Shown here: positions 817 to 20,362 of the stretch, one piece after another | How the letters are laid out: the number at the start of each line of letters is the position of its first letter | Numbering within the stretch: position 1 is the first letter of the stretch | Origin: a virus | Taxonomy: Duplodnaviria; Caudoviricetes | DNA length: 42,247 nt | IMG/VR virus record: IMGVR_UViG_3300012041_000039 | Coordinates: 1 to 42,247 of that record | Reading direction: 5' to 3' (one strand) | Notes under the pieces: model-generated | Told to the model about the DNA's origin: nothing | Database searches by the model: none | What the model saw: only the letters and a program-made list of their open reading frames with translations | Program-made: the position numbers and the translations under genes

Positions 817-1866
817 ATGATAGCTTCTGTCGTTGAAAGAGCCACTTTCAAGCGGTGCCGTCGTAAGTGGTGGTTAACATCAGATACTCAGGAAAATCTT
901 GAGCCTATAGCATTAGCTCCCGCTCTATTGCTTGGTGGTATGATTCAGGAAGCATTAAGTTACTGGACAGAACGCCCTGATTCTGATCCAGTAGAGAGCT
1001 TCGCTAAGCTTAGCGAGAACGCTATAATTAAGTATAGCGATTTATACTATGAGCGCCATGAATTTCCTATCAGTGACCTTGAATTAGATGAAGTTTACAA
1101 GGTCATTGAATTAGGCATGGCGATGACGACTAATTATCGCGATTATTATAAAGCCCCACTACCCGCAGGTTTCCATGTAATACAAACCGAACAGCGTATG
1201 CTTGTTGATATTCCCAACACTGAACACTGGGAATGCAACAATTGCGGATATGTCTATTACGATGTAGATGTAAATTGGAAGCCCGATGATATACTTCTAT
1301 GTCAAGATGGCTGTATGCAACCAATGGTAACATGGCAATCTCATAAACTACGTGGTACACTTGATAGCCTGCTACAAAACAAAGATGGTCGGGTGTTCCC
1401 GCTAGAGCGTAAAACTTACGCCGCCCGCCCAGAAGTATCGAAGTTACAGCACGATGATCAGATGCTTGCATATGATTGGATGATTTCTAAAATCTATCCG
1501 AATCAAGTTGGTGGTACGCTGTATGATGGTTTATGGAAACGAGCTGCACCACCCAATACTAAAAGCAGTCGTACTGGACAAAAGAATACAATAGAGGATT
1601 TGTTTTATCGTGATATTTTCTATCGACCACAAGCTGAACGTGATGAGTTTGAGGCTCTATTAGCTATAGAAGTTAACGATATGTGTCGAGCTAAACAGGA
1701 ACAAGCTTACTACATTAATCGTCAATGGATGGGCTGCTTTGATTGCGGCGTAGAAAAACTTTGTAGTGCAATGAGTCGCGGTGAGGACACTACGTATATA
1801 CGTGAAACATACTACCATCCTCGACCAAGTGAAGGTTTTATGTTGTTCGAAATGGAAGCTGAATAG
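817..1866 (+). CDS. Cas4/RecB-like PD-(D/E)xK exonuclease with probable 4Fe-4S cluster and an inserted Zn ribbon
   Basis: N-terminal Cys (FKRCRRKW), nuclease motifs LRGTLD...LERKT and QMLAY, C-terminal CxxC-x5-C (GCFDCGVEKLC); extra CNNC...CQDGC insert; AAGGAAG RBS. Confidence 0.85.
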   Translation: MIASVVERATFKRCRRKWWLTSDTQENLEPIALAPALLLGGMIQEALSYWTERPDSDPVESFAKLSENAIIKYSDLYYERHEFPISDLELDEVYKVIELGMAMTTNYRDYYKAPLPAGFHVIQTEQRMLVDIPNTEHWECNNCGYVYYDVDVNWKPDDILLCQDGCMQPMVTWQSHKLRGTLDSLLQNKDGRVFPLERKTYAARPEVSKLQHDDQMLAYDWMISKIYPNQVGGTLYDGLWKRAAPPNTKSSRTGQKNTIEDLFYRDIFYRPQAERDEFEALLAIEVNDMCRAKQEQAYYINRQWMGCFDCGVEKLCSAMSRGEDTTYIRETYYHPRPSEGFMLFEMEAE

Positions 1867-2120
1867 TGTCTAGAACGACAAAAGAAATTGATGTTATAAT
1901 TAAGCGAAAGTTAGATGTTATAACGTGCGATTTTTGTGGGAAAGAATGGGCCGTATCTAGAAGAGATATAGCCGATCCTGAAGTTCCAGAAGTAGAGTTT
2001 TTACAAATAATTAAACATTCATCCAATGACTCTATTGCATGGGATGATATGTTACAAGGTGAATTCTGCTCCTTAACCTGCTTACAGAGTTGGACATATC
2101 GTATAACAGGTTGGCAGTGA
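1866..2120 (+). CDS. small Zn-finger protein
   Basis: TCDFCG...EFCSLTCL pattern; overlaps both neighbours. Confidence 0.7.
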   Translation: MSRTTKEIDVIIKRKLDVITCDFCGKEWAVSRRDIADPEVPEVEFLQIIKHSSNDSIAWDDMLQGEFCSLTCLQSWTYRITGWQ

Positions 2121-2452
2121 AATCAATTCCAATACTCAAGTATGATCCCAAAGTTGTAGTTGTATGTCCATTAATACATGATAACCCTAGTATTCATTTG
2201 CTAATTGAAGAGCAGTTAGATTGGGAGTGGATAGCTACTATTAATACTCCTGATAACCATCTAACGTTTAGCATGGTTCATAGAATGCCAATGCGAATAT
2301 TAGATTATACTGTAACTATGGACATGCAACGACCTCGAAAGTTTTACAAACAAAAAGTTAAAGAACCAATACTTCCATTAAAAACACGTGATGTGTGGAT
2401 CGAGGATTGCGACATGTTTTACATGAAACGACAAAAGGTGGTACGCATATAA
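2117..2452 (+). CDS. hypothetical protein
   Basis: Track ORF 2090..2452; the GTG at 2117 forms a GTGA overlap with the upstream stop and is the likelier start. Confidence 0.6.
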   Translation: MKSIPILKYDPKVVVVCPLIHDNPSIHLLIEEQLDWEWIATINTPDNHLTFSMVHRMPMRILDYTVTMDMQRPRKFYKQKVKEPILPLKTRDVWIEDCDMFYMKRQKVVRI

Positions 2453-3288
2453 TGGTTCGTCCTGCTATAACACAAGAAAACAAATCTAGTTTTGGCGGAC
2501 TACAAATCCGATACACGGATGATATTAAAGAAGTCGGTACTAACTGGACATTGTTCGGGCCTGCTGGGGCCGGTAAGAGCACATTTCCCTTACCATTAGC
2601 AGAAAGTGAAGAATTTGGCCCATTGTTTTATGTAGCAAGTGGTTCTGGTTTAAGTGTTGTTCAACACAAACATATACCCTATATTATCCCTGAAAAGTGG
2701 CAAGATTTACAGCGTGTTCTTGACGAATGCAAGAAATGTACACCAGAAAGTATGCCGCCATTTAAGGCTATAGCTCTTGACAACTTGAGCGAATTCATAG
2801 TGTTAGCACGATGGCATGTCTGTCCTATCAATGGTTACCCAGAAGGTACTAATGCGTTGCGTGATTGGAATAAGATCACGCAGATGGTAATCACCTATGT
2901 GCGTGAATGGCGTGATCTTACGGAACAGTTACCCATACACGTATTCTTTATGGCATGGGATTCAGATGAACGGGGTACTGCAAGTGGTGCAGGTAAATTA
3001 ACTATCGATCTTAATCCTGCACTGCAAAAAGCATACCCCGGTATAGTTGACACGATAGGTCATATTAGTGTGCCTAACCATGATCCTGATCATCGTGTTG
3101 TTAACTTTACACCTGATATGAAAGCCATTACTAAGTTCCGTCGTAATCCCTCAGCTAATGCGCGTAAGATTCCGTACGAAGTGTACTACGGACTCGACAA
3201 TTTGCCAATCGTAGATATTCTAAAAGTTATGCGCCACGATGATGTGTGGCCTGCCGATAAATACAAGCGACCTAATCGTGGTGAATAA
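2452..3288 (+). CDS. AAA_24 / Sak4-like ATPase (ssDNA annealing, recombination)
   Basis: Walker A GPAGAGKST, Walker B IALDNLSE, later DTIGHI motif; located between a Cas4-like nuclease and SSB genes; TAATG overlap gives start 2452. Confidence 0.8.
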   Translation: MVRPAITQENKSSFGGLQIRYTDDIKEVGTNWTLFGPAGAGKSTFPLPLAESEEFGPLFYVASGSGLSVVQHKHIPYIIPEKWQDLQRVLDECKKCTPESMPPFKAIALDNLSEFIVLARWHVCPINGYPEGTNALRDWNKITQMVITYVREWRDLTEQLPIHVFFMAWDSDERGTASGAGKLTIDLNPALQKAYPGIVDTIGHISVPNHDPDHRVVNFTPDMKAITKFRRNPSANARKIPYEVYYGLDNLPIVDILKVMRHDDVWPADKYKRPNRGE

Positions 3289-3589
3289 AACAACCATTGG
3301 TCATAACGATGAGTACGTATTTACAAGTTATGATAACTTCTATGATCAAAATGGTGATCCTGTAGTTACATTGTGGTTCTCACGTAATGGTCGTATAGCA
3401 GCATCAAAACAAATGAGCTTAGCCAATCATATGTTATGGCGTTTCAAACGTGTTGCTATAATTATGGGAGCTAACCCTTTGGAGTTTGAAGGTAGTATCG
3501 ATACAGACGTGGTTTTAGAACAGTTAGTAGGAAAGACAGTACGTCTAAAAGGTATAGACGCTCCACAACAATATGATAAAGAGTCCTAA
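3281..3589 (+). CDS. DUF669-like SSB paralogue (divergent)
   Basis: MLWRFKRVAIIMGANPLEFEGSIDTDVVLEQLVGKTVRLK aligns by eye with SLWSFKKTAVALGADPEAFVGEFDTDEIMVDLVGEECRIK of 3889..4287. Start placed at GTG 3281. Confidence 0.65.
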   Translation: MNKTTIGHNDEYVFTSYDNFYDQNGDPVVTLWFSRNGRIAASKQMSLANHMLWRFKRVAIIMGANPLEFEGSIDTDVVLEQLVGKTVRLKGIDAPQQYDKES

Positions 3590-3815
3590 CTTTACAGAAG
3601 TACACAGTTTCGACGTAGAATATGTACGAGTGGCAGATGGTCACACAATAGTAGTCGCTGTTACAGCAAATGTTGATTTCACTAGAGATTTCATCTCTCA
3701 CGGTAATGTCTCTATACCGATTATAGATGATGATCTTAATACTATGCGAGACATTATTGCACGTGTAGTAGACCACATCGATTTAACTATTAAAACTCTG
3801 AAAGGGGGTGGTTGA
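3573..3815 (+). CDS. hypothetical protein
   Basis: 80-aa ORF in the co-oriented gene run. Confidence 0.6.
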   Translation: MIKSPNFTEVHSFDVEYVRVADGHTIVVAVTANVDFTRDFISHGNVSIPIIDDDLNTMRDIIARVVDHIDLTIKTLKGGG

Positions 3816-3888
3816 TGTTCACTACAATTAAATAGCGAACATTGGGGCAATAAGTAAAAGAAAAAGAAAAAAGGAAAGTTAAAGAAAA

Positions 3889-4287
3889 ATGTGTCCAGTA
3901 GTTGATGGTTCCGCAATTCAAGAGTTTGAGCAGCTACCGGAAGGTATTTACCCTGCCAAGCTTGAAAAGTGGGAAAACAAGGAAACCAAGAGCGGCGATT
4001 CAATTAACGTCAACATGACCTTTGTGGTCACTGAGGGCGAGTGCGAAGGGCGTAAGGGTTTCCTTTCACGTAACCTTAAGCCGCAATCGCTATGGTCGTT
4101 CAAAAAGACGGCAGTAGCTTTAGGTGCTGATCCTGAAGCCTTTGTAGGCGAATTCGACACCGATGAAATCATGGTTGATCTTGTCGGTGAAGAGTGTCGC
4201 ATTAAGGTTGAGGAACAAAAGGAAGGCGACTACGCAGGTCGTACACAGATTACTGATGTACTGGCCGCTGCGTATGCGTTGAAGTAA
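3889..4287 (+). CDS. DUF669-family single-stranded DNA-binding protein
   Basis: FEQLPEGIYPAKL...SG...F.V..GE.EGRK...LVG..CRIKV pattern of phage DUF669 SSBs; AAGGAAAG RBS in an A-rich leader. Confidence 0.8.
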   Translation: MCPVVDGSAIQEFEQLPEGIYPAKLEKWENKETKSGDSINVNMTFVVTEGECEGRKGFLSRNLKPQSLWSFKKTAVALGADPEAFVGEFDTDEIMVDLVGEECRIKVEEQKEGDYAGRTQITDVLAAAYALK

Positions 4288-4742: not shown

Positions 4743-4856
4743 TTGAAGCGTACTAGTAAGAAATCTAAAAAGTTTATTATGAATAAAGAAGAAGCCACGG
4801 CGCTTAATAGACTTCAACAGGAAGCAATTAAAAAACTAGCAGAGGTTAAGAAATAG
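4743..4856 (+). CDS. 37-aa basic mini-ORF coupled to the primase gene
   Basis: GGAGGA RBS at 4732-4737, TTG start, MKRTSKKSKKFIMNKEEATALNRLQQEAIKKLAEVKK*; its TAG overlaps the ATA at 4853. Confidence 0.6.
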   Translation: MKRTSKKSKKFIMNKEEATALNRLQQEAIKKLAEVKK

Positions 4857-7216
4857 ATACTGCTAGTTTTCTTAAATCAGTAGTTACTACTCCTGATGGC
4901 TGGTTTAATCTAGCGCTTAGAGATGCTGAACGTGAGTGGAAGCAAAGTTGGTACAAGTGGCCCCATCAACTAGATGAAATAGTTGATGCTGCTGACAAAG
5001 CCTCGGCTGTACAAGACGTTTACTTTAGCGCTCACCTATTTGAAATTAAAGATGCACACAAACAGCATGTGCTACCGAGTCGCACTATTCAGTGCGATCT
5101 CGATAACGCTGCTGTACCACATACAAATGTGCCCTCAATACTAGTTGAAACTAGTCCTGAACGTCATCAGGGTTTCTGGTTTCTCGAATCACCTCAACAG
5201 CCTACTGACCTTGAAGCTATAAGTAAACAGGTTACTTATAGTATACCTGACGCTGACCATAGTGGTTGGTCACTAGGTCATCGTATGCGTGTACCTAATA
5301 CTTATAATCATAAGTATTCAAGTGGGCCAAAACCTGTTAAAGTTATTTCAGCTAGCCTAGAAAAATATGCTAGTTTAAAACTTCCTGATAATACAATAAT
5401 TGATCTTGATTTACCGTTAGCCGATGAATGGCAACCTACCCCGCTTATAGGCCATGGCCCGCGTGAGTTATGGCTACGCATTAAGCCCAGTTTGCCTCGC
5501 AGAGTACAAGCTGCATACGACCTGCGACAACAAGATCGTAGTGCGGCACTTTGGGCGTTAATGTTAGCGTTGTTTAGGCAAGGCTTGAGCCGCGATCAGG
5601 TATTTTGGATTGCACAAGCCAGTGCTAATAATAAATGGAAAGATAATCGTTTCCATGCTGACTTAGATCTAGCTAAAGATGTATTTCGCGCTGAACGTGC
5701 TGTCGTCGCAGGTATTGATGATGGTGGTGATGTACTTGCAAAAATCAATGATGCTCGCCGTATGCCCGGTGCACCTAACGAGCGTAGAGCTTATTTAGCA
5801 CATATAGTTAAAGAAGCTATGGCGGCAGCAGGCACATTCGTTAGTGCCGATGATGGACAAGATTGGTATATTCGTAGTGATACTGGTCGTCCTATTTTAC
5901 TGACTCGTAGTAGTGAATATCTAAATAGCCTATTAGAAACTCGTTTCGGTCTTAATGCAGTTGAACCAGAACAACGCTACGTTATAAATAATCTACTAAC
6001 ATCAGCTAAGGAAACTGGCTTGCCTGGTTTAACCAGTGCTCTAAGCCACTACGATAAACCTCAAAATGTAGTACTGCTACATACAGGTCGTCGCGATGTA
6101 CTTCGTATCGACAACAATAAAATCTCAACCCAAAGTAATGGCCACCTTAATGTAGTATTTCCTTGGCGTTTACATGAAGAACCATTTAGCCCTGACATAA
6201 ACAATCCTTTGAGTATCGATCGTATGTTCGATGAATGTTTCGATAATCTTAATGACATGCCATCGAACGAAGCCTTAGCTCTGGTTAAGTCATGGCTCTA
6301 TTTTTTATTTTTTAGAGATGCCGCCAGAGCACGTCCAATTCTTGCACTTCTAGGACAACCCGGAAGTGGTAAGACTGCTCTTTTTAATAGAATCTATACA
6401 TTATTATATGGCCCTGAAAAAGCAATTAATACTATAACTACAGCGGATAACTTCGACAGTGCAGTATCAAGTAACCCATTGGTTGTATTTGATGGTGTTG
6501 ACTCATGGGTAGGTTGGTTGCCTGATAAACTATCGCTAAGTGCAGGAGTAAGCGTCTTAGAGAAACGCAAATTATATACTGACAATGATGCTTTTACTGT
6601 ACGTCGCCAAGCTATGGTGGGTATAACTGCACACAACCCCAAATTTAGACGAGAAGATATTATCGACCGAATGATTATATTGTCATTTCATAGGTTCAAG
6701 ATATTTAAACCTAGTACTGAGATAATAGCTGAGATGGTAACTAATCGCAACCGTTTATGGGGAGGTATAGTAAATGATTTACAACTTATATTAAATACAC
6801 CAATTCCTACCGAAGAAGAGCTTCCGCGATTTCGTATTAGTGACTTCGCACGATTTGGTCTTTGGTTCGCTAGAGCACTAAACTATGAAGATGATTTCGT
6901 GGCTGCATTAAAGACTAACGTACATGAACAAACCAGTTTTAACCTTGAAGAAGAAGATGCTTTAGTAGACACGATACGTGTTTGGATACAAACTAAATAC
7001 TATGATCCAACGAGGTACTACAAAGTTAGTGAGTTATGGACAGCATGGCAAGCTAATAGTCGTGATCCTACTAACTTTATGCGACAGTATCGTAATGCAG
7101 TAATGCTTGGTAAAAAGCTATGGACTCTTCAAGAAACTCTCAATTCAGTATTTGAAGTAGAGTTTGAATCCGATCTACATACTTCATCTCGTGTATGGAG
7201 AATACAGCCTAAGTGA
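4853..7216 (+). CDS. RepB'-type primase fused to a P-loop helicase-like domain
   Basis: DVYFSAHLF, QCDLD, PSILVETSPERHQGFW, AD.SGW...RMRVPNTYNHKY (RepB' primase); DRS...ALFRQG helical domain; Walker A GQPGSGKT. The frame is open 72 codons upstream of the track's GTG 5069. Confidence 0.85.
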   Translation: MDTASFLKSVVTTPDGWFNLALRDAEREWKQSWYKWPHQLDEIVDAADKASAVQDVYFSAHLFEIKDAHKQHVLPSRTIQCDLDNAAVPHTNVPSILVETSPERHQGFWFLESPQQPTDLEAISKQVTYSIPDADHSGWSLGHRMRVPNTYNHKYSSGPKPVKVISASLEKYASLKLPDNTIIDLDLPLADEWQPTPLIGHGPRELWLRIKPSLPRRVQAAYDLRQQDRSAALWALMLALFRQGLSRDQVFWIAQASANNKWKDNRFHADLDLAKDVFRAERAVVAGIDDGGDVLAKINDARRMPGAPNERRAYLAHIVKEAMAAAGTFVSADDGQDWYIRSDTGRPILLTRSSEYLNSLLETRFGLNAVEPEQRYVINNLLTSAKETGLPGLTSALSHYDKPQNVVLLHTGRRDVLRIDNNKISTQSNGHLNVVFPWRLHEEPFSPDINNPLSIDRMFDECFDNLNDMPSNEALALVKSWLYFLFFRDAARARPILALLGQPGSGKTALFNRIYTLLYGPEKAINTITTADNFDSAVSSNPLVVFDGVDSWVGWLPDKLSLSAGVSVLEKRKLYTDNDAFTVRRQAMVGITAHNPKFRREDIIDRMIILSFHRFKIFKPSTEIIAEMVTNRNRLWGGIVNDLQLILNTPIPTEEELPRFRISDFARFGLWFARALNYEDDFVAALKTNVHEQTSFNLEEEDALVDTIRVWIQTKYYDPTRYYKVSELWTAWQANSRDPTNFMRQYRNAVMLGKKLWTLQETLNSVFEVEFESDLHTSSRVWRIQPK

Positions 7217-9708: not shown

Positions 9709-12700
9709 ATGATGACTTTACCTGCCTTCACAGAAAATGCTCTGACTGTATTAGGGAAGCGATATCTTCAACCAAATGAAACTCCCGCTGAGATGTTACA
9801 GCGTGTTGCGGGAGGACATGAAGATTTTTATGAGCTTATGGCTCGTATGGATTTTCTTCCCAATTCACCTACTTTGTTTAACAAAGGTGTACCTGATAGC
9901 GGTACATATAGTGCTTGCTTTGTATTTGATATTCCTGATTCTATGGAAGGAATCATGGATACAGCTACAAAGGCAGCTATGGTACAAAAGTGGGGTGGTG
10001 GTGTAGGTTACTGTTTATCAGACATACGACCTAAAGGTTCGTACATAAAGAGTACCCACAAGTCAGCATGTGGCCCCGTAGCTGTATTAAAGATGCTTCA
10101 TAGTGTAAGTACTATGATAACTCAGGGTGGTAAACGTGCTGGTGCACAGATGGCTATACTCCATTGTGGTCATCCTGACTTGCAAGAGTTTATTCACTGT
10201 AAAGATGATGACCCTGATGCCTTAAATACTTTCAATATTAGTGTTGCACTAACCGATGATTTCATGTCGTCAGCTTATTTAGGTAATGAACCCCAAGCTA
10301 GTTTATTACGTGAAATGGCCCAAAGCGCATGGCGTACAGGTGACCCAGGAGTCTTTTTTATAGATGAGGTTAACCGAAAAAACCCTACTCCGTGGTTATA
10401 TAAAATCAATGCGTGCAACCCTTGTGGTGAACAGCCGCTAGCTACAGACGAATCATGTAATCTTGGAAGCTTAAATCTTGGTAATTATATTACTCCATTC
10501 AATGCAGTCAATTGGACAAAGCTCGAACATGATGCTCGTACCGCCACGAGGTTTCTCGACCACATACTCGATACCAATTCATTCCCTACGCAATCGATTA
10601 CCGACGCAAACAATCTTACTCGTAAAATTGGTTTAGGTGTTATGGGTTGGGCTGATATGCTCGCCATTTTAGGCATTCATTATGATACAGATGAAGCTGT
10701 AAATCTGGGCGAACAAATTATGCAGACAATCCATACGACGGCTATTACTGAAAGTCACAAACTTGCTAAAGAAAAAGGTACTTATGACGGTTGGCAAGAA
10801 GGTGAAGATTTCCGTCGTAACGCTTGTGTTACAACTGTAGCACCTACAGGATGCCAAACTGGAGAGACTTTAATTGTATCGGAAATAGGTATAGTTCGAT
10901 TAGATGAACTTGGCGATACTTATGGTGACAAATGGCAAGATTTAGGTATCAAAGTTTCTCAAGAAGGTAAGACCGAACTAGCAACTAGATTCTATATAAA
11001 CGGAAAAGCTAAAACTAAAAAGATTACACTTTCAAGTGGTATTGTATTAGAGTGTACTCCAAATCATAAGTATAGAGTTTTCAAAGATGAATCTTATGAT
11101 TGGATACGTGCAGATGAACTTAGCCCTCTAGATCGTGTTGCTACACGTATAGGTGGATATACTAATACAATTGAATATCCTTTACGACAACTTCCTATAC
11201 GATCAACTAGGAGAGGTGTTCTTCCAAAAAAGATTACTTTTCCCAGTGAAATGTCTCCAAAGTTAGCATTATTTCTTGGTATGTTCATAGGAAATGGTAG
11301 TGTACATGATAAAGGAATACGTCTACACTTTAATGATGAGCATACTGAGAAGATAGAGCTTGCTATCTCTCTCATAAAAGAACTATTCAATTGGGATTCA
11401 AAAGCTCTAAAAGAGCACACCTGTACTTCTATTTATTTATCTTCAACATCATTGAAGAATTGGCTCGATATAAATGGGCTGAATAAAAATCTATCAATAG
11501 ATGCTGTCATTCCTCCACCTATTAGAATGTCTAGTGTAGATTCTATAGAGATGTTTATAGCTGGATTGTGGATGACTGATGGTAGTATTACAGGTAACAC
11601 TAAATATATTGATACTTCTAGTTTTCAATTAGCACAAGAGCTATTAGTATGTATGAGAGCTATAGGCCAAAACGGTAGAATAACAATTTATGAAACTATA
11701 AAGGGACGAATAAGTCAAAAACCATCCTACAGAATATTCTGGAAAGATTTTGGATCTTCATCACAAGTATATGATGGAACTGGTTCTTCACGTAAGGATA
11801 AAGATTTCAAACGTAAGATACGAGAAACTTATAGTGAATTACTTTGGGATGACGTTGTTGAAATAGAAGATTCTGAAGCTGATACTTATGATATTGAAGT
11901 CCCTGAGAATAACACATATATAGCTAATAGTGTTATATCTCACAATACGATAAGTTTGCTACTTGGTGCAAGTAGTGGTATTGAACCTCACTTCGCTATT
12001 GAGTGGACACGATACATGTATCAAAACAATGAGCGTATTCCTCTTGTTGAAAAGATACCTGTTATGAGCCGTGTGCCCGCAGGTTTTGTACCAAAGACTG
12101 CTATGGAAATAGCTCCTGAATGGCACATAAAACATCAAGCAGCCTTTCAGAAATGGGTTGATTCAGGTGTTTCAAAGACAATAAACATGCCTGAATCAGC
12201 AACAGTAGAAGATATTTACAACGCCTACATAATGATGTGGCAAACAGGTTGTAAAGGTGGTACGGTTTATCGCGATAAGTCTCGTGGTACTCAAGTACTT
12301 AACGTTGAACCTCGTACTTCTATAATAGATGAAGCTTTTAGTCTTATAGATGAAGCGGCTTTTGATATAGATAAAGGTTCAGTTGAAGGTTTAACTAAAC
12401 TTGAAGCATTTGTCGATAAAATGGAATTACAAACTGGTGGTGTTATATATTCACCAGTACGACGTAAGCTTCCTGATGAACGACCTTCAATAACTCATAA
12501 GTTTCGTGTAGGTGATCAAGAAGGTTACATAACTGTAGGTCTGTTTGAAGATGGTATGCCCGGTGAATTATTCATTAGTTTAGCCAAAGATGGTTCAACC
12601 ATGCATGGTCTGTTAGAAAGTATTGGTATACTTACGTCATTGTGCTTGCAGTACGGTGTACCACTAGATCACTTAACGCATAAGATGCAAGGTATTGAAT

Positions 12701-12936
12701 TTGAGCCTCATGGTTTTACTTCCAACAAATTAATACCTCAAGCTAGCTCTATAGTGGATTACATATTTCACTACATGAGACACCGTTTTCTTCCTTGGAC
12801 ACTTGACGTAGACACGATACCTACGGAATCCTTAGTAGTTAATGGTTTGCTTTGTCCTGATTGTGGTAGCCAAACAGTACAACAAGAAGGTTGTACTAAA
12901 TGTATAAGTTCTTCATGTGGATGGTCTAGATGTTAA
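9709..12936 (+). CDS. nrdJ: class II (adenosylcobalamin-dependent) ribonucleotide reductase, intein-containing, with C-terminal TSCPD-like domain and Zn ribbon
   Basis: FLPNSPTL, SACFV, GGGVG, RAGAQM, GDPG, NPCGEQPL (thiyl Cys), CNLGSLNL, RKIGLG, APTG/TIS, DSGVSKTIN, GCKGGTVYRD; C-terminal CPDC...C..C...CGWSRC; no class I beta-subunit gene in the window. Confidence 0.93.
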   Translation: MMTLPAFTENALTVLGKRYLQPNETPAEMLQRVAGGHEDFYELMARMDFLPNSPTLFNKGVPDSGTYSACFVFDIPDSMEGIMDTATKAAMVQKWGGGVGYCLSDIRPKGSYIKSTHKSACGPVAVLKMLHSVSTMITQGGKRAGAQMAILHCGHPDLQEFIHCKDDDPDALNTFNISVALTDDFMSSAYLGNEPQASLLREMAQSAWRTGDPGVFFIDEVNRKNPTPWLYKINACNPCGEQPLATDESCNLGSLNLGNYITPFNAVNWTKLEHDARTATRFLDHILDTNSFPTQSITDANNLTRKIGLGVMGWADMLAILGIHYDTDEAVNLGEQIMQTIHTTAITESHKLAKEKGTYDGWQEGEDFRRNACVTTVAPTGCQTGETLIVSEIGIVRLDELGDTYGDKWQDLGIKVSQEGKTELATRFYINGKAKTKKITLSSGIVLECTPNHKYRVFKDESYDWIRADELSPLDRVATRIGGYTNTIEYPLRQLPIRSTRRGVLPKKITFPSEMSPKLALFLGMFIGNGSVHDKGIRLHFNDEHTEKIELAISLIKELFNWDSKALKEHTCTSIYLSSTSLKNWLDINGLNKNLSIDAVIPPPIRMSSVDSIEMFIAGLWMTDGSITGNTKYIDTSSFQLAQELLVCMRAIGQNGRITIYETIKGRISQKPSYRIFWKDFGSSSQVYDGTGSSRKDKDFKRKIRETYSELLWDDVVEIEDSEADTYDIEVPENNTYIANSVISHNTISLLLGASSGIEPHFAIEWTRYMYQNNERIPLVEKIPVMSRVPAGFVPKTAMEIAPEWHIKHQAAFQKWVDSGVSKTINMPESATVEDIYNAYIMMWQTGCKGGTVYRDKSRGTQVLNVEPRTSIIDEAFSLIDEAAFDIDKGSVEGLTKLEAFVDKMELQTGGVIYSPVRRKLPDERPSITHKFRVGDQEGYITVGLFEDGMPGELFISLAKDGSTMHGLLESIGILTSLCLQYGVPLDHLTHKMQGIEFEPHGFTSNKLIPQASSIVDYIFHYMRHRFLPWTLDVDTIPTESLVVNGLLCPDCGSQTVQQEGCTKCISSSCGWSRC
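10852..11946 (+). mobile_element. 365-aa intein with LAGLIDADG homing endonuclease in nrdJ
   Basis: Interrupts APTG|TISLL; begins CQTGET, block B LECTPNHKY, LAGLIDADG motifs FLGMFIGNGS and FIAGLWMTDGS, block F TYDIEV, ends SHN followed by Thr. Confidence 0.93.
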
Positions 12937-13172
12937 ACGTTATTGCAATAGATCCAGATGGTAAGGAATATGAATTAGGTTCAGTGATCTTCGAAGCTGA
13001 ATTCTATACTCATATGCCTGAAAGTATAACGATTAGCAATGTAAAGATTCGTGACACTGAATCTCACGAAGAGATAGCTATGTATGATTTAAGCTTATCA
13101 CAAAAGTATTTTGCAAAAGGAGAAGCTTTTAGCATAACATTCGTGATAACTGCATGGGATAAACAACCATGA
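12930..13172 (+). CDS. hypothetical protein
   Basis: 80-aa ORF overlapping the nrdJ stop and the polymerase start. Confidence 0.65.
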   Translation: MLNVIAIDPDGKEYELGSVIFEAEFYTHMPESITISNVKIRDTESHEEIAMYDLSLSQKYFAKGEAFSITFVITAWDKQP

Positions 13173-15748
13173 TTACATGTCATCCAGAGGGGGTAGTTGG
13201 TTACGGCCAACTACCCTCCGATATAATGGCTGTGGGTATCGCACCCGGTAGAGCAGAAATGAAGGATAAGAAGCCATTCGTAGGGCCAAGTGGAAAAAAC
13301 TTAGATGGCTTATTAAAATTTGTTGGATATAAACGTGAAGAAGTATTTACAACAAACTTGTATTGCCAATGGAACGATGCCCCAACTGAAGAAGAAATCA
13401 TGGGATGCTTCCCACGATTTGCTGAAGAAGTAGCTCTATGCAAACCAAAGATCATAGTTTGTATGGGTAAAATTGTAACTGAATTTCTCATGGCTGATGT
13501 TACGGGCGGTGAGAAATTCGGTTCAGTTAATGGCGGAGCTTTCTGGTCGCCACAATACAACTGTTGGATGCTATCCACTAATCATCCTGCGGCATTTATT
13601 GATCGAGGCGATGATAGTGGTTATGTAGATATAGCTGAGGGTGTTCGCGATTTCCGAAAAATACCTTTGTACTTAAATGCTCCACCCGATTTTGGTAAAG
13701 TAGATTACACAGTACTAGACACCGTAGACGCAGCAATACATCATATTAATCATTTTATGACGCATAGAAATGATGTAGTAGCTATCGACGTAGAGACATA
13801 TTACCCTGACGATGCACAGGGGCGAAAAGGCATGATCTCTATTGCCTTTACGTGTAGTTGCGGTACTTTCCACATACCGAAAGATATTATCAATCGAATT
13901 GACTATTCATCGTTAGCTGAGTTTGAGTGCAGATGGACTTATCATAACGGTCAGTTTGACCGTAATCAAATCAAGAAGTGGCTAGGCCCAGATCTACTCA
14001 TACATGAAGATACCATGCTTATGAGCTACAGTCTTGACGAGCGTGGTGGTGGAGATAAAGAAGCCGACTCTAGCGGTCAGGATCGTAGCGTAGGTATTCA
14101 TGGTCTTAAATTGTTAAGCATGGAATATCTTGGTGCAGGTCTATATGGTAAAAAAGCCAAAGATAATATCCCAGACCTTACACCTGAAGAATTAGCTTTA
14201 TACAACAGCAGTGATGCTGCATACACATATAGGCTACAGCGATACTTCGAACCTCTTCAAATTGCTGACTCCGTTCGAGATATGTATCTCAAACTTCTTA
14301 TACCTGGCGCTAATACGTTTTCGGAAATTACTGAGCGTGGAGTTTACATTGATAATGAAGCTTTAGGTGCTCTAGTAAGAGAATGGGTTCCTGAGTATTT
14401 CAGGCTTGAAGAGGAATTACAGAAAAGTGCACTAGAGCTTGGCTGGAAAGACGTTGATTTAACAGGCCATAAGTCATGGACTCGCGAATCAATCAATACT
14501 AGTAGCCCACAACAGATAGCTCACTTCATCTACGATATACTCGGTGCTCCACATATGGGTAGAGATAAGATGTACAGAAGTACCGCTAAACCCATTATTG
14601 AAATCTTAGTTAAAGAATATCCTAATCATCCCGCAAGTATATGGTTACAAATAGAATTAGAATGGCGAGGACGTGAACGTGATATTAACACATACATCGG
14701 TGGAGTTGAGCGTACTAGAGACTCCGAAGGTTTCATCCATCCAGAAGCTCTCTTACATGGCACCAGACACGGACGAGCAGCGTATCATAACCCACCAGTA
14801 CAAACTATTCCGAAAGCTCGTACAGTTGGAGAAGATCGTGCAAGAATACGCCGAATATTTAGTGCTGCGCCTCCTTCTTCTAAGAATACGGGCGAAAGAG
14901 TTTTGCTCGAAGCCGATGGTAGGCAAGCTGAACTTTGGTCTAGTTATTTTGTTTCTGGCGACGAGCAGATGCGTATCGACTTAACGACATGTGAAATATG
15001 TGAGGAACCTACACATCTTATTGGCCCTGATCTTATAGGTGACGTACATCACAATGCTTATTGTGAAGGTACATTAAAGAAACATAAATCAGATTTTCAT
15101 GGTAGAGCAGCAACCGCTGCATGGGGAGAAACCAAAGATTCAGTACCTATAACCGAATGGAAGTACATACGTGATTCGATGAAGCGTATCGTATACGGCG
15201 CTAACTATGGTGCTGGCCCTGATGCATTGGTTGAAGATCGTAAAGCGGAAGGTATCGCAGGATCTAACTATCGCTTTCTTGCTACTCGTAAGGAAGCCAA
15301 AGATTCAATTGATGCTTATCTAGCTAAATATAATATATTTAAAGCATGGCGTGAGAATGAGCGTCGTATAGTACAGACTGAAGGCGAGCAGGTTAGTCGT
15401 ACAGGTCGTAAGCGTCGCTACTATATGATTCAGTCTTACAAACAATTGAATCAAGCTATCAATACACCAGTCTCTAGCTTTGCTCACGACTTCATATTAA
15501 TGTCAATCATTGAGCTTCACAAACTTTTGGCGGAATTTGATGCCTACGTACTTTATGAAGTGCATGACTCGATAGTATTCGATATTCCGAAAATGTATCT
15601 CAAGGAATGTATCAAACTAATTGAATACGTAATGACAAAACCTCGTTGGGGTACTCCCTGTGGAATTCCTGTCGATATGGAGCTTGGTGAAAATTGGTTT
15701 GATTTGGAATCACTAGAAGATTATATGAAACATGAGGTTGCAGCATGA
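13169..15748 (+). CDS. polA: family A DNA polymerase with N-terminal uracil-DNA-glycosylase (family 4-like) domain and 3'-5' exonuclease
   Basis: UDG: VGIAPG..E....PFVGPSG, PKIIVCMG, NHPAA. Exo I/II/III: IDVET, HNGQFD, YNSSDA. Pol motif A ADGRQAELW, motif B RDSMKRIVYGANYG, motif C VHDSIVF. Confidence 0.92.
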   Translation: MITCHPEGVVGYGQLPSDIMAVGIAPGRAEMKDKKPFVGPSGKNLDGLLKFVGYKREEVFTTNLYCQWNDAPTEEEIMGCFPRFAEEVALCKPKIIVCMGKIVTEFLMADVTGGEKFGSVNGGAFWSPQYNCWMLSTNHPAAFIDRGDDSGYVDIAEGVRDFRKIPLYLNAPPDFGKVDYTVLDTVDAAIHHINHFMTHRNDVVAIDVETYYPDDAQGRKGMISIAFTCSCGTFHIPKDIINRIDYSSLAEFECRWTYHNGQFDRNQIKKWLGPDLLIHEDTMLMSYSLDERGGGDKEADSSGQDRSVGIHGLKLLSMEYLGAGLYGKKAKDNIPDLTPEELALYNSSDAAYTYRLQRYFEPLQIADSVRDMYLKLLIPGANTFSEITERGVYIDNEALGALVREWVPEYFRLEEELQKSALELGWKDVDLTGHKSWTRESINTSSPQQIAHFIYDILGAPHMGRDKMYRSTAKPIIEILVKEYPNHPASIWLQIELEWRGRERDINTYIGGVERTRDSEGFIHPEALLHGTRHGRAAYHNPPVQTIPKARTVGEDRARIRRIFSAAPPSSKNTGERVLLEADGRQAELWSSYFVSGDEQMRIDLTTCEICEEPTHLIGPDLIGDVHHNAYCEGTLKKHKSDFHGRAATAAWGETKDSVPITEWKYIRDSMKRIVYGANYGAGPDALVEDRKAEGIAGSNYRFLATRKEAKDSIDAYLAKYNIFKAWRENERRIVQTEGEQVSRTGRKRRYYMIQSYKQLNQAINTPVSSFAHDFILMSIIELHKLLAEFDAYVLYEVHDSIVFDIPKMYLKECIKLIEYVMTKPRWGTPCGIPVDMELGENWFDLESLEDYMKHEVAA

Positions 15749-15939
15749 GTATACCCTTGGTAGTTCAATGTAGTAAATGCGGTCAACGTATGATAAGTGA
15801 ATATGATACTATAGTTTCAGTAGATCCCTTTACTACTTCTAGAATAGAAATCTCTTTAGAAGCTCAATATTCAATGCTTATAATTCATATGCTAGAACAC
15901 ATAAGTAATGATTTACGATCAATAAAATTGAGTGTTTAG
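15745..15939 (+). CDS. small Zn-finger-like protein
   Basis: CSKC...H-x3-H; ATGA overlap. Confidence 0.6.
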   Translation: MSIPLVVQCSKCGQRMISEYDTIVSVDPFTTSRIEISLEAQYSMLIIHMLEHISNDLRSIKLSV

Positions 15940-15940
15940 C

Positions 15941-16099
15941 ATGACATTAGAGAAAGTTCCTTTATGGTTTAAGGAGAAACGTCCAAATGGCTATCGTTGG
16001 ATATGTAGTATTTGTGAACACTGGAATAGCGAAACTGACGAAGTATGTTTCACGTGTACCGCAAACACACGTCCTGAATGGAGTAAACCATTAAAATGA
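15941..16099 (+). CDS. 52-aa RanBP2-type Zn-finger protein
   Basis: WICSICEHWNSETDEVCFTC equals W-x-C-x2-C-x3-N-x6-C-x2-C; ATGA overlap downstream; below the track cutoff. Confidence 0.7.
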   Translation: MTLEKVPLWFKEKRPNGYRWICSICEHWNSETDEVCFTCTANTRPEWSKPLK

Positions 16100-16389
16100 C
16101 ATGGCTCGAAGAAGCAATTAAACAATTTGACGAAGAAAGAGAAAGTAGGTCTGATGCTCGTAAACAATATTACAGTGTGAAATCAACTGAATACTTAGTC
16201 CTTAAAGATTTAATAAGTAAAACAGAAGTAATGACTCTTTCCGCTAATACACAGGGTGGAAATCGAAAATGGGATCAACGTGATCCATTTCTAGATCGTT
16301 TGGCTGAATTAGTAGATGAATTTTATCCTATGTGGAAACGTACACCATCCGAAGAAGCTAAGTTTCAACAGGCTATAAATTCATGGTAA
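16096..16389 (+). CDS. hypothetical protein
   Basis: 97-aa ORF, coupled. Confidence 0.6.
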   Translation: MTWLEEAIKQFDEERESRSDARKQYYSVKSTEYLVLKDLISKTEVMTLSANTQGGNRKWDQRDPFLDRLAELVDEFYPMWKRTPSEEAKFQQAINSW

Positions 16390-16601
16390 TGTTATTTCAT
16401 TATACTGATTCATACCCTAAAGGCAGAAAGTATGTATTCCAAAACATACTTGATTTTGGTATGGGAGATGCTATATATGTATCGAATGTAGCTTGTGCAA
16501 ATATAGGTCGTAGAACACGTCGCCGTTTCCAACTATGGCACATAAAGGGTGAAGCATTAGATTTCAAAATAACCTATAAATCCTACAAAAGACATGCCTA
16601 A
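16383..16601 (+). CDS. hypothetical basic protein
   Basis: 72-aa ORF overlapping both neighbours. Confidence 0.5.
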   Translation: MVMLFHYTDSYPKGRKYVFQNILDFGMGDAIYVSNVACANIGRRTRRRFQLWHIKGEALDFKITYKSYKRHA

Positions 16602-17109
16602 AGTAACTATTCCTAATACACCATATAAAGGTAAACCCTCTGGAGCACGCTTACCTGCGCGTAGGGCATCAACTCCTAGAGGACGTGTATATCCTAAATC
16701 TCCACCGTTAGCTCCACCTAGCGATCACCGTATAATTGCTATTGATCCCGGATATACGACAGGCATTGCAGCACGCATTGATAGTAAGCTATGGACATGC
16801 GTTGCAACTACCAATGATGAAGTACTCGGCATGTTAGATACTATGGAATATGTAGTAGTTGAGCGATTTGAGACAGCAGGTCGCCTAAGCGCACCGGGTC
16901 ATCATACAATTAATTTAGTAGGTGAGATAGTGGGTTGGTGTAAAGCCAAAGGAATAAAGTATGAATTATGTATGCCACAACAACGTTGGATGATGATGAC
17001 AGAAGCTCGTGGGGCCGTAGGTACTCTCATAGAACCTTCTAAAGTTGCAAAGCACGAAACGGATGCTCTTGCACATCTTCTCGCTTTCGAGTATAGACGA
17101 CGGTGGTAA
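16594..17109 (+). CDS. RuvC-like Holliday junction resolvase (RNase H fold) with basic Pro-rich N-terminal tail
   Basis: IIAIDPGYTTGIA, VVVERF and HETDALAH acidic motifs. Confidence 0.8.
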   Translation: MPKVTIPNTPYKGKPSGARLPARRASTPRGRVYPKSPPLAPPSDHRIIAIDPGYTTGIAARIDSKLWTCVATTNDEVLGMLDTMEYVVVERFETAGRLSAPGHHTINLVGEIVGWCKAKGIKYELCMPQQRWMMMTEARGAVGTLIEPSKVAKHETDALAHLLAFEYRRRW

Positions 17110-17110
17110 A

Positions 17111-17665
17111 ATGAACGAAGAAATAGAAATTTGGAAATCAATTTCAGGATATGAAGGATTATATGAAGTATCATCTCTAGGACGAGTAAGGAGTTTAGAT
17201 AGATTAGTAGATAGTTCACAAGGATATAAAGCGAAAAGATCTGGACGTATATTAAAGCTTGGTGTTAATACTAGTGGATATTATCATGTAGCTTTATCTT
17301 ACGGTGGTGGCATAGTCATGTATAGAGTTTCCAGACTCGTAGCTGCTGCTTTTATAGAAAATCCAGAACCGATTTTCTATAACGAAGTAAACCATAAAGA
17401 TGGAATAAAATTCAATAACACCGTTGGTAATTTAGAATGATGTAATCACACGCAGAATCGTCAACACGCTATGGATTTAGGTTTGTGGAAACCTCCATAT
17501 GGAGAAAGAGCTGGTTTTGCTACTATTACCCAGGACATAGCAACTGCTATGAGAAAAGATTATTATGAATTTGGCATGTCTAATAAGAAGATCATTGAAA
17601 AATATAAAACTACAAAAGGGGTAGTTGACGGTGTAATTGGCTATAGAACCTGGATACACGAATAA
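17111..17665 (+). pseudogene. NUMOD4-HNH homing endonuclease with in-frame TGA
   Basis: EIWKSISGYEGLYEVSSLGRVRS (NUMOD4); VNHKDGIKFNNTVGNLE*CNHTQNRQHA. TGA 17438-17440 replaces the conserved Trp of NLEW. Track ORFs 17045..17440 and 17471..17665 are in the same frame. Confidence 0.85.
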
Positions 17666-18466: not shown

Positions 18467-18658
18467 GTGGACTATTTACGTGTAGCTATAATTTCATTAG
18501 GTATAGCATTAGTAATTACAGGTTTATTAATAGCTTGCAATGGTAAAGAAAACATTCCTGAATGTCCTAATACAACTGTGTTAGACACACAAATGGGTTT
18601 CATTCCCGTACGTTCTGGAGATGAATGGGCATGTGTTATAGGATACAAAATTAAATGA
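18467..18658 (+). CDS. small membrane protein or possible lipoprotein
   Basis: AGGAGG RBS; hydrophobic helix ending LIAC (lipobox-like). Confidence 0.6.
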   Translation: MDYLRVAIISLGIALVITGLLIACNGKENIPECPNTTVLDTQMGFIPVRSGDEWACVIGYKIK

Positions 18659-19002
18659 GCTATCCAATTGATTTGAATGATTTAGCACAACGTATCAATA
18701 AGAATGCACGAGATCATGGATTCTGGTCTACTGATAATTATCCTACGTTTGGTGACAAGATAGCCCTTGTACACAGTGAGTTAAGTGAATCACTAGAAGA
18801 ATATCGTGATCATAAAGCATGGTATTATGAGGTTGATGGTAAGCCAGAAGGTATTGGTGTTGAATTAGCAGATGCAATAATTCGTATACTTGATATGTGT
18901 GAAGAAATGGCTCCACAGGGTTTTAACATACAACAAGCAATACTCAATAAAATGTCCTACAATGAAACACGTTCTTTTATGCATGGTGGTAAAGCTCTAT
19001 GA
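18655..19002 (+). CDS. MazG-like nucleotide pyrophosphohydrolase
   Basis: KIALVHSELSESLEE...VELADAIIRILD...KMSYNETRSFMHGGK; ExxE...ExxD motif. Confidence 0.85.
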   Translation: MSYPIDLNDLAQRINKNARDHGFWSTDNYPTFGDKIALVHSELSESLEEYRDHKAWYYEVDGKPEGIGVELADAIIRILDMCEEMAPQGFNIQQAILNKMSYNETRSFMHGGKAL

Positions 19003-19127
19003 GTGATGAAATACCTAATGAATATTATTCACTACAATGCCCAAACAAGAAATGTGGACATATGAATTTACGATGGCGAATGCTTTGCTATATCTGCGGA
19101 ACTAGACTCCATCCAGTTGTAACATAA
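18999..19127 (+). CDS. 42-aa RanBP2-like Zn-ribbon protein
   Basis: CPNKKCGHMNLRWRMLCYIC (C-x4-C-x3-N-x6-C-x2-C); ATGA and TAATG overlaps. Confidence 0.65.
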   Translation: MSDEIPNEYYSLQCPNKKCGHMNLRWRMLCYICGTRLHPVVT

Positions 19128-19780
19128 TGCAAATAGTACCAATTAGTTTTCAATTTCTTGATCCATTCACAGCAGATGATGGCATACGTATGCTTAAGAA
19201 GATTGAGCGTATAGCGCGTGTAAGTCATAGAAGTGAAGATAGAGTAACAGAAGATTCTTATGATAAGTTTCTTAGAAGTGTTGTAATGACACATGGCGAC
19301 TTAAGTGTTATTGAACACGTTAATGTTACAGTTGAAGTGGAAGTTGATCGTGGAATAACTCATGAAATAGTACGTCATCGTATTGGGGCTTATACACAAG
19401 AATCAACTCGTTTCGTTAACTACAATAAACAACCAATGAGATTCATACAGCCTCCTTTCAAATCAGCTATGACTGATTCTTTTTGGGAAGAGGCTGTAGA
19501 GCATCTAGAAGAAACCTATCTTGCATTATTGAAAGAAGGTGAACCGCCAGAAATAGCTCGCAGTGTACTACCGAATAGTCTAGCAGCTAAATTAGTCATA
19601 ACTTACAATCTACGCATGTGGCGCTATTTCTTAATCATGCGTACAACTAAAGAAGCCCATCCACAGATGAAATTATTAACAATTCCTTTGGTTGATAGGT
19701 TTAAGGAGACGATACCAATTTTATTTGAAGATATACTTCCGGAAGTGCGACAAGCAGATGCTATGAGATTACTCCGTTGA
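19127..19780 (+). CDS. thyX: FAD-dependent thymidylate synthase
   Basis: SVIEH, RGITHEIVRHRIGAYTQESTRFV (RHR-x7-S-x-R), EIARSVLPNS, NLR.WR.F...R....AHPQM. Confidence 0.93.
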   Translation: MQIVPISFQFLDPFTADDGIRMLKKIERIARVSHRSEDRVTEDSYDKFLRSVVMTHGDLSVIEHVNVTVEVEVDRGITHEIVRHRIGAYTQESTRFVNYNKQPMRFIQPPFKSAMTDSFWEEAVEHLEETYLALLKEGEPPEIARSVLPNSLAAKLVITYNLRMWRYFLIMRTTKEAHPQMKLLTIPLVDRFKETIPILFEDILPEVRQADAMRLLR

Positions 19781-20001
19781 ATATACAAGCCACATTGTTA
19801 AAACAACGTTGTAAGATTATGTCACCTATAGATTGTCTTGGTCATAATTGGCAATGTACTAAATGGCAAGGTCACGTGAAGCAGCGTGGTAATAAAACTC
19901 ATACGGCTTTCGCACCTAGTAGTTGGCATCCAGACTTTGCTATTAAATTTACAGGTGAACCTAACATGCTAACAATTGAAGAGGAGAGAAATGCGCAGTA
20001 G
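19777..20001 (+). CDS. hypothetical Cys/His protein
   Basis: 74-aa ORF with TTGA overlap. Confidence 0.5.
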   Translation: MNIQATLLKQRCKIMSPIDCLGHNWQCTKWQGHVKQRGNKTHTAFAPSSWHPDFAIKFTGEPNMLTIEEERNAQ

Positions 20002-20362
20002 TAAAGAATTAATTAAAATTGCACAACAGGGTGGTCTTATTGTTGGTAAACCATTTACAGCGTATCTACTAAATTATGAAGCAGGCACTGCCGCTCGATG
20101 TGCACAGTATGCTGTTCATACTGATGGTGTAGAATCAGAAGGTTATAGAGCACATCTACAGACAGAGATGGCAGACCTACTAACTCAAGCACGTATGTTA
20201 CTAGAATTATATGATCTTCCGTGGCAAGAAACTATGGAGATGGGTGAAGCTAAACTTATAGAAACAGCAGAGAAGTTTCAGAAGTTAAATATTAACACTA
20301 TGGATCGTATACTAGGACGCGAGCGTATAGTGCGAACACCAACACGTAGAGAAGGTGATTAA
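19991..20362 (+). CDS. second, divergent MazG-like helical protein
   Basis: NYEAG...LQTEMADLLTQARMLLELYDL resembles the E...ExxD helical hairpin; GAGGAG RBS supports ATG 19991. Confidence 0.5.
   Translation: MRSSKELIKIAQQGGLIVGKPFTAYLLNYEAGTAARCAQYAVHTDGVESEGYRAHLQTEMADLLTQARMLLELYDLPWQETMEMGEAKLIETAEKFQKLNINTMDRILGRERIVRTPTRREGD

Follow-up and report, generated by a model that had tools for sequence, protein, structure and literature searches.

Does a phage DNA polymerase that has lost a residue reading the template's minor groove copy an unusual genetic alphabet, or ordinary DNA? The question is raised by a gene in the 42,247-nucleotide viral record IMGVR_UViG_3300012041_000039 (Caudoviricetes; the whole stretch is called the window here), a 51%-complete fragment of a tailed phage genome. 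The gene, P0001, encodes a uracil-DNA glycosylase (UDG), an exonuclease and a family A DNA polymerase (PolA) in one chain, and an earlier note on this DNA had proposed that its altered motifs could mark a replicase for non-canonical bases. We find that the loss of the glutamine equivalent to Q849 of Escherichia coli PolA is natural, rare and fixed within one clade. We consider it rather likely that P0001 replicates the genome of a probably lytic phage whose DNA has the ordinary bases A, C, G and T; a histidine and a tyrosine would make up for the missing glutamine, and the front domain would serve as a slow uracil catcher. P0001 most likely belongs to an undescribed UDG-PolA lineage, its modest oddity being the loss of Q849 after the gain of His at position 853, and an altered genetic alphabet is probably not involved. 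The features of the gene are listed below, with polymerase residues numbered by E. coli PolA, to which P0001 was aligned.

13169 to 15748, + strand: UDG-exonuclease-PolA gene P0001 (open reading frame, Pfam, AlphaFold model, run contigs)
13169 to 13678, + strand: family-4-type UDG domain with motif A GIAPG (Pfam, alignment, structure match)
13772 to 14254, + strand: 3'-5' exonuclease domain, motifs I-III intact (Pfam, E. coli PolA alignment)
14480 to 15700, + strand: family A polymerase domain (Pfam, structure matches)
14765 to 14812, + strand: TGR segment RHGRAAYHNPPVQTIP, with R668 kept (R536 of P0001), T666 as His, N675 as Pro and N678 as Thr
14915 to 14938, + strand: motif A, DGRQAELW, with D705 and E710 kept, Y706 as Gly and R712 as Trp
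14990 to 15091, + strand: CxxC...C...H insertion following motif A (sequence inspection)
15170 to 15208, + strand: motif B, with R754, K758 and Y766 kept and F762 as Tyr (alignment)
15449 to 15490, + strand: motif 6, NQAINTPVSSFAHD, with N845 kept, Q849 as Ser (15473-15475) and A853 as His (15485-15487)
15563 to 15568, + strand: motif C, HD (E. coli PolA alignment)

The open reading frame runs for 859 amino acids without an internal stop, and it and every motif quoted in the earlier note were found in place. Pfam recognizes the UDG at residues 11-144 (74 bits), the exonuclease at 202-362 and PolA at 438-844, all above cut-offs, giving the broad layout of a phage UDG-PolA fusion (N-terminal family 4 UDG, exonuclease and polymerase in one chain). 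Contigs from four of four sequencing runs (three labelled freshwater sediment and one groundwater, of which one may be the window's source) matched the window over 12900-16100, wherever they reach into the gene, without a differing letter or gap; a further run with a share of 0.09 was left out. The AlphaFold model (pLDDT 87, pTM 0.88) matched Klenow with a Z of 29.4 (root-mean-square deviation 3.5, 559 residues aligned) and also matched Bst Pol I, which indicates a Klenow fold; further Z values were 21.6 for family 4 UDG, 21.4 for UdgX, 20.6 for DpoZ, 18.5 for family 5 UDG and 15.1 for phiLo. The closest match among 50,697 records shared 25% identity over 97% of the protein, and no cultured phage is close to P0001.

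All catalytic residues could be mapped to E. coli equivalents, in agreement with the earlier note. In the polymerase, P0001 residues D583, E588, R668, K672, Y676 and Y680 correspond to E. coli D705, E710, R754, K758, F762 and Y766, while N765, S769 and H799-D800 correspond to N845, Q849 and H881-D882, and His773 to A853; the catalytic D, E, R/K/Y and HD of family A motifs A, B and C are all present. In the exonuclease, D207, E209, D264, Y345 and D349 stand for D355, E357, D424, Y497 and D501. The alignment also confirmed the exchange of Q849 for Ser (Ser769, codon 15473-15475) and of F762 for Tyr (Tyr676, codon 15194-15196). The minor-groove contact R668, which lies in a segment that the earlier note listed as deviating, is retained as R536, the Arg of HGR, in 21/21 members of the clade described below, in which N845, Y766, D705, E710, R754, K758 and H881-D882 are likewise invariant. 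Nor did the proposed joint deviation of four segments hold: the Tyr, Pro and Thr of the TGR segment, the Trp of motif A and the non-Glu UDG motif are common among 147 further relatives, are older than the loss of Q849 and are shared with relatives that keep it, while Gly at Y706 is private to P0001 (1/21 clade members). Since these common changes occur with varied modification genes, they mark descent and not one particular base. By the earlier note's own account, its proposal would lose ground if the substitutions were common in homologues from phages with unmodified DNA; three of the four segments do recur widely, in relatives whose modification genes differ greatly, and the Q849 part of this comparison is read from the single 51%-complete contig.

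The CxxC...C...H loop, which like His773 goes unmentioned in the earlier note, occupies residues 608-641 and, among 165 relatives, was seen only in P0001, P0002, P0003 and P0052, a patchy distribution across the tree. From its residues, it is possibly a metal-binding loop, perhaps for zinc.

The comparison set comprised 18 close and 147 further relatives, with bacterial Pol I matches and two distant matches excluded; one sequence ambiguous at 849 (L070) was left out of the counts, and a candidate suggested by the alignment to lack the glutamine (P0232) was rejected, as it carries Gln. The clade without Q849 consists of 21 clusters that are 42-91% identical. Position 849 is Ser in 19/21 and Ala in 2/21 members, position 853 is His in all 21, position 762 is Tyr in 19/21, and position 666 varies (Asn 8, Val 8, Thr 4, His 1). 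Outside the clade, Q849 is kept in 142 of 143 ungapped relatives. Just six positions that the other relatives conserve are no longer conserved within the clade, and the three of these in the polymerase site are T666, F762 and Q849. Gln is present in 78 of 83 lower-ranked matches, most of them bacterial Pol I; the remaining 5 did not match the pattern. The wider GIAPG-type lineage is uncultured, has ~90 representatives and preserves Q849.

The Q849-less group is monophyletic (FastTree 0.999, SH-aLRT 100) and is nested in a clade of 58 tips, in which His853 is present in all 57 ungapped tips; the 31 tips outside the Q849-less group all have Gln849 and Phe762. The nested His853 and Q849-less clades had SH-aLRT supports of 99 and 100, respectively, in an IQ-TREE fast-mode tree that left out 12 redundant or partial sequences of the 58 and added 4 outgroups. 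As all 57 tips carry His853 and 31 of them still have Gln849 and Phe762, His was fixed before Q849 was lost, and the loss of Q849, the change of F762 to Tyr and the relaxation of T666 map to a single later branch. An order in which Q849 was lost before F762 changed was considered and rejected, the two Phe762 members being nested and probably reversions. Gln849 and His853 also occur together in the StAshley polymerase. A metagenome search for further Q849-less contigs of the clade returned just the window itself and two distant loci, and one genome-search match proved to be a chance match and not a PolA. No description of the GIAPG lineage, or of a natural loss of Q849 (the motif 6 Gln), was found in the open-licence literature, and the supplements of PMC13697223 and PMC10201439 may include members.

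What would such a loss do to a polymerase? In KlenTaq, the Gln touches N3/O2 of the template base and, via water, the incoming dNTP, and the Arg touches the primer base (PMC6125688). Q849A is reported to leave substrate recognition unaffected, with the primer-side contact counting most (a review, PMC3347538), to reduce T:G misinsertion (PMC10520511) and to be an antimutator (PMC4773887). The equivalent mutant of Pol gamma is slower, shows higher exonuclease activity and does not manage rolling-circle replication, and flies that carry it die (PMC4773887). From this literature, loss of Q849 is expected to affect speed and not the alphabet. Tyr762 is frequent in phage PolAs and has been tied to higher dNTP efficiency and to lytic phages (PMC6302109).

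The mechanism that we favor starts from the domains, residues and clade distribution given above, and from ThyX and NrdJ lying within the same module as the polymerase. In the published mutants, Gln-to-Ala slows synthesis and boosts proofreading, and base choice is not relaxed. His773, which became fixed earlier and is predicted to lie a single helical turn away from Ser769, may have made the Gln dispensable, and Tyr762 may then have brought speed back. A rival idea is that the loss is an adaptation for extending past abasic template sites made by the UDG, where a Gln would have no base to contact. SP15-like UDG-PolAs do remove dU from the template and copy past the resulting abasic site (PMC13697223), and four of the six Q849-less sequence sets are UDG fusions (this clade, P0161, P0219 and P0222). 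However, the search was seeded with a UDG-PolA and is hence biased to fusions, the bulk of UDG-PolAs with the intact Glu keep Q849 (44/44 in the relatives compared), L076 and L077 have Ser849 with no UDG Pfam match, and the P0001 UDG should produce fewer abasic sites, all of which makes this explanation decidedly unlikely.

We then asked what the window says about modified bases. A six-frame search of this 51%-complete contig detected no PurZ, ThyA/hydroxymethylase (PF00303), dCMP deaminase, QueC, FolE or TGT, and no HD_3, HD, GT2 or 2-oxoglutarate (2OG) oxygenase; datZ was also not found, so that none of the companions named in the earlier note (purZ, datZ, hydroxymethylase, dCMP deaminase and deazaguanine genes) was seen in the half genome at hand. 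Among 14 of 26 GIAPG-lineage loci surveyed (15-81% complete; duplicates and most short ones dropped), Gln849 was kept wherever visible, and the counts were 0 for PurZ, 0 for the ThyA family, 5 for ThyX (4 above cut-off) and 2 for dCMP deaminase. The varied modification genes of the lineage probably act after replication. Y766F is the sole substitution common to both clades of DpoZ (PMC8599892); this position is Tyr680 in P0001 and Tyr in 21/21 clade members, both DpoZs compared retain Q849, and the NCBIfam model phage_DpoZ_1 gave P0001 19.4 bits against a cut-off of 500. With R668, N845 and Y766 kept, DpoZs keeping Q849, a low DpoZ score, a ThyX gene and none of the searched modification families in the 51%-complete contig, the non-canonical-base replicase proposed earlier is unsupported. 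What stands of that interpretation is that P0001 is a UDG-PolA, of a kind for which uracil excision in replication has been shown (PMC13697223), and that its loss of Q849 is real.

A clade replicating substituted-base DNA (Z, hydroxymethyluracil (hmU) or another minor-groove modification), in which removal of Q849 makes room and the genes lie in the missing half, is an unlikely alternative for which there are nonetheless arguments. The loss is fixed across proteins that are just 42-91% identical and falls together with the relaxation of T666 and with F762Y, hmU-type or deazaguanine genes are present in the nearest cultured phages with a UDG-PolA, the window has two MazG-like genes, and about half of the genome is unseen. 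Against this, Q849 is retained not only by both DpoZs but also by SP-10, PMBT14 and StAshley, Y766 and N845 are conserved, ThyX is encoded, PurZ and the ThyA family are each 0/14 among relatives, and in the cultured examples the modification genes adjoin the polymerase, a region that is complete here. We regard as quite unlikely a bolder version, in which the clade rebuilt its minor-groove network (gaining His853 and Tyr762, losing Gln849 and Thr666) for a minor-groove-modified base; this would have happened independently of the two DpoZ clades, and the genes for making the base would lie in the half of the genome that was not sequenced.

Restriction sites were examined in the same light. Six-base palindromes in the window occur at 0.77 of expectation, and several sites are missing (observed/expected: GGWCC 0/23.5, GAAGAC 0/12.6, CTGCAG 0/10.3, GCATGC 0/7.9, GGGCCC 0/7.5). 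In four loci with deazaguanine-type genes, palindromes are at 0.84-1.02 of expectation, and site avoidance in the window is thus a weak argument against modified G. It was rejected as evidence against Z or hmU, since phiVC8 and Wayne (Z) and Goe9 (hmU-type) avoid A/T-containing sites too. We also observed that GAGACC is wholly missing from 1-42247 and that one relative (L082) likewise has no GGWCC, GAAGAC or GAGACC; from this shared loss, their hosts may have many restriction systems in common.

A link between Ser849 and 7-deazaguanine DNA appears most improbable. It is suggested by L076 and L077 (one lineage, with a Q849S that arose independently), the sole other Q849S PolAs with readable context, which adjoin Vut_1 and DUF3310, families that we take to be linked to deazaguanine; L076 also has QueC. 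However, the QueC-bearing L035, L037, L038 and StAshley retain Gln, QueC, FolE and TGT were not found in the contig, tblastn of the L076 and L077 neighbors against the window gave no match, and the window avoids G-containing restriction sites while deazaguanine-type loci do not. An unnamed gene of 234-245 amino acids lies directly upstream of the Q849S PolA in both (L076:6080-11566, L077:5336-9610). Elsewhere in the GIAPG lineage, GT2 glycosyltransferase and 2OG-Fe(II) oxygenase genes were seen in L007:10448-11879 (G004) and in G011; the latter (57.6 kb, terminal repeats) has five GT2 matches and a C5 methylase, possibly a cytosine hypermodification system.

The front domain poses a separate question, namely whether it still excises uracil. 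Compared with Thermus thermophilus UDGa, Ile24 corresponds to E41, Glu30 to E47, Phe37 to F54 and Asn63 to N80, with His139 within HPAA. As the earlier note had read, motif A is GIAPG, with Ile24 (codon 13238-13240) in place of the catalytic Glu of the family 4 motif GE(A/G)PG, and this is lineage-wide; the TIGR00758 score is 91.6 bits, below its cut-off of 125.3. The family 4 pocket and motif B are nevertheless there (Glu30, Phe37, Asn63 and H139-PAA). Glu30 (19/19 ungapped), Asn63 and His139 are invariant in the Q849-less clade and occur in 85, 89 and 76 of 91 sequences, respectively, in the wider group. The motif A Glu is missing in 91 of 135 further relatives with a residue there and is absent throughout a clade of 131 tips. 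Three Cys are conserved (4, 66 and 80), and a CxxC is found in 0/16 core sequences versus 39/42 GEAPG relatives; His5 might be the fourth ligand of a 4Fe-4S cluster. The UdgX hallmarks GEQPG and KRRIH loop are not in the P0001 sequence, and family 5 features (GLAPA, HPSPLN, Gly at the E47 position) are replaced by GIAPG, HPAAFI and Glu30. In the QueC-bearing L035-L038, the motif B region could not be aligned, and their UDG may be shortened or split.

In UdgX and DR0022, the nucleophile is activated by the motif A Glu, and enzymes that lose it are crippled, while family 5 UDGs have Leu in its place and are active (PMC10359453, PMC9796141); E47 of the T. thermophilus enzyme bars T and hmU (PMC9796141). 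P0001 would thus have a uracil-specific pocket with slow or no turnover. We suggest that the pocket selects uracil and excludes T and hmU. Family 5 enzymes have a nonpolar residue in place of the Glu, and like them the domain may excise uracil slowly, or it may sense uracil in the template before the active site is reached. Its combined action with ThyX and the MazG-like enzymes would exclude uracil from T-containing DNA. The main competing view, which we find doubtful, is that the UDG is catalytically dead and helps a canonical polymerase by guiding the template or by adding processivity, a role proposed for N4-like PolAs. The absence of the Glu across 131 tips, the loss of CxxC in 16/16 core sequences where 39/42 GEAPG relatives have it, the replacement of the motif B His in 15/91 wider members and the crippled Glu mutants of related enzymes are all consistent with a dead domain; the conservation of Glu30, Asn63 and His139, however, points to selection on a uracil pocket, and the family 5 enzymes are active with Leu at the Glu position.

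Our preferred reading of an ordinary-DNA replicase with a slow uracil catcher needs to be interpreted with caution, as several observations weigh against it. Five PolAs (P0161, P0219, P0222, L076 and L077) have Ser849 without His853, so that the His is not required for loss of the Gln. Among UDG mutants, E44A is inactive (PMC9796141) and E52N is down ~75-fold (PMC10359453). Lineage loci do carry modification-type genes: QueC in 3/14, a C5 methylase in 1/14 and, counting the window, GT2 in 5/15 and 2OG oxygenase in 2/15 (HD 0/15). The gene content of the Q849-less clade is read from one 51%-complete contig, and modification genes may lie elsewhere. Site avoidance, also seen in phiVC8, Wayne and Goe9, is compatible with Z or hmU.

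The surroundings of P0001 are those of a replication module. Run contigs extend past the left end of the window by ~130 and 480 bases, which shows that it is a fragment. Its left half holds genes for an exonuclease, Sak4, SSB, a primase-helicase, a class II ribonucleotide reductase, the polymerase, a resolvase, two MazG-like proteins and ThyX, and the same module was found again in relatives; lysis and tail genes occupy the right half, on the opposite strand, and no head or packaging genes were recognized in the window.

817 to 4287, + strand: PD-(D/E)XK exonuclease, Sak4-like annealing protein and SSB (Pfam, phrog matches)
4853 to 7216, + strand: primase-helicase of the lineage-conserved replication module (profile match, relatives)
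9709 to 12936, + strand: class II ribonucleotide reductase (NrdJ) carrying a LAGLIDADG intein (~residues 384-747)
16594 to 17109, + strand: Holliday junction resolvase (profile match)
18655 to 19002, + strand: MazG-like pyrophosphatase (phrog_3301; weak dUTPase_2 match)
19127 to 19780, + strand: ThyX thymidylate synthase (106.5 bits, TIGR02170 cut-off 87.9)
19976 to 20362, + strand: second probable MazG-like pyrophosphatase (feature score 0.93; a lead)

In the primase-helicase, the open frame begins 72 codons upstream of the first GTG, relatives align from 4853, and the ATA codon there stands after a GAGG motif; the gene probably starts at this ATA. A NUMOD4-HNH endonuclease at 17045-17665 (+) has an in-frame TGA (17438-17440) through which one relative aligns, and it is probably a pseudogene. 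In the structural region, 37801-41466 (-) encodes a 1221-residue protein with many degenerate ~23-residue repeats (phrog_7816, unknown function).

Q849 has been treated as near-invariant, and its loss stops long-DNA replication by Pol gamma. The sister lineages preserve the intermediate (His853, Gln849 and Phe762) and offer a ready series for studying how PolA reads the template minor groove, and the Q849-less clade offers a starting point in the search for enzymes that tolerate unnatural bases in the template. The GIAPG lineage as a whole is a large UDG-PolA group between active (SPO1, SP15) and degenerate (N4) forms, and can show whether uracil sensing outlives the catalytic Glu.

UDG-PolA fusions have been described for N4-like phages (degenerate UDG, not known to modify DNA) and for SPO1, SP-10 and SP-15 (PMC10201439). 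The SP15-like enzymes (YerA41, phiLo and SP-15; PDB 9qhs, 9qlh; PMC13697223) share with P0001 the N-terminal family 4 UDG fused to exonuclease and PolA and the UDG-site His, and their UDG sits on the template ahead of synthesis, a layout that is probably the same in P0001. They differ in length (1100-1300 residues, with at least 1000 expected of the group), in Inserts 1 and 2 and in a C-terminal domain, for which the 859 residues of P0001 leave no room. Their UDG conserves Glu and His, whereas P0001 keeps His139 and has Ile24 for the Glu; in a further contrast, no T-hypermodification genes, PolX or ligase were seen in the P0001 contig, and the structural Z between phiLo and the P0001 model is only 15. 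SPO1/SP-10 UDG-PolAs have the same three-domain order and a similar length (24% identity over residues 69-850) but keep Q849 and Phe762, where P0001 has Ser and Tyr. Close to them lies a dUMP hydroxymethylase or a thymidylate synthase homologue, while the P0001 phage has ThyX and its 51%-complete contig gave no PF00303 match, and SP-10 falls outside the supported GIAPG clade at a tree distance of 3.9, so that P0001 does not group as SPO1-like.

N4-like PolAs (cluster 17 in PMC10201439) resemble P0001 in size (800-900 residues), in a UDG without catalytic residues and in phages not known to modify DNA. Compared by description, the trees being without N4, they differ in Phe762 and in UDG deletions, whereas P0001 has Tyr676 and an intact His/Asn/Glu/Phe pocket; sister lineages of P0001 also carry Phe at 762. 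The family 4 UDGs share with P0001 the scaffold, the equivalents of E47, F54, N80 and H155 and the HPAA motif B, and the family 5 GLAPA shares the nonpolar second residue, so that motif A of P0001 is a hybrid of both, with three Cys instead of four. DpoZ (phiVC8-like and Wayne-like) is likewise a divergent phage PolA changed near the active site, but it has Y766F, keeps Q849, has no UDG and stands alongside purZ, none of which is true of P0001 in its half genome. The closest parallels to the residue change itself are Klenow Q849A and Pol gamma Q1102A/Q1009A, in which the same residue is removed; these are laboratory mutants that are slow, antimutator and fly-lethal (PMC4773887), whereas the loss in P0001 is natural and clade-fixed.

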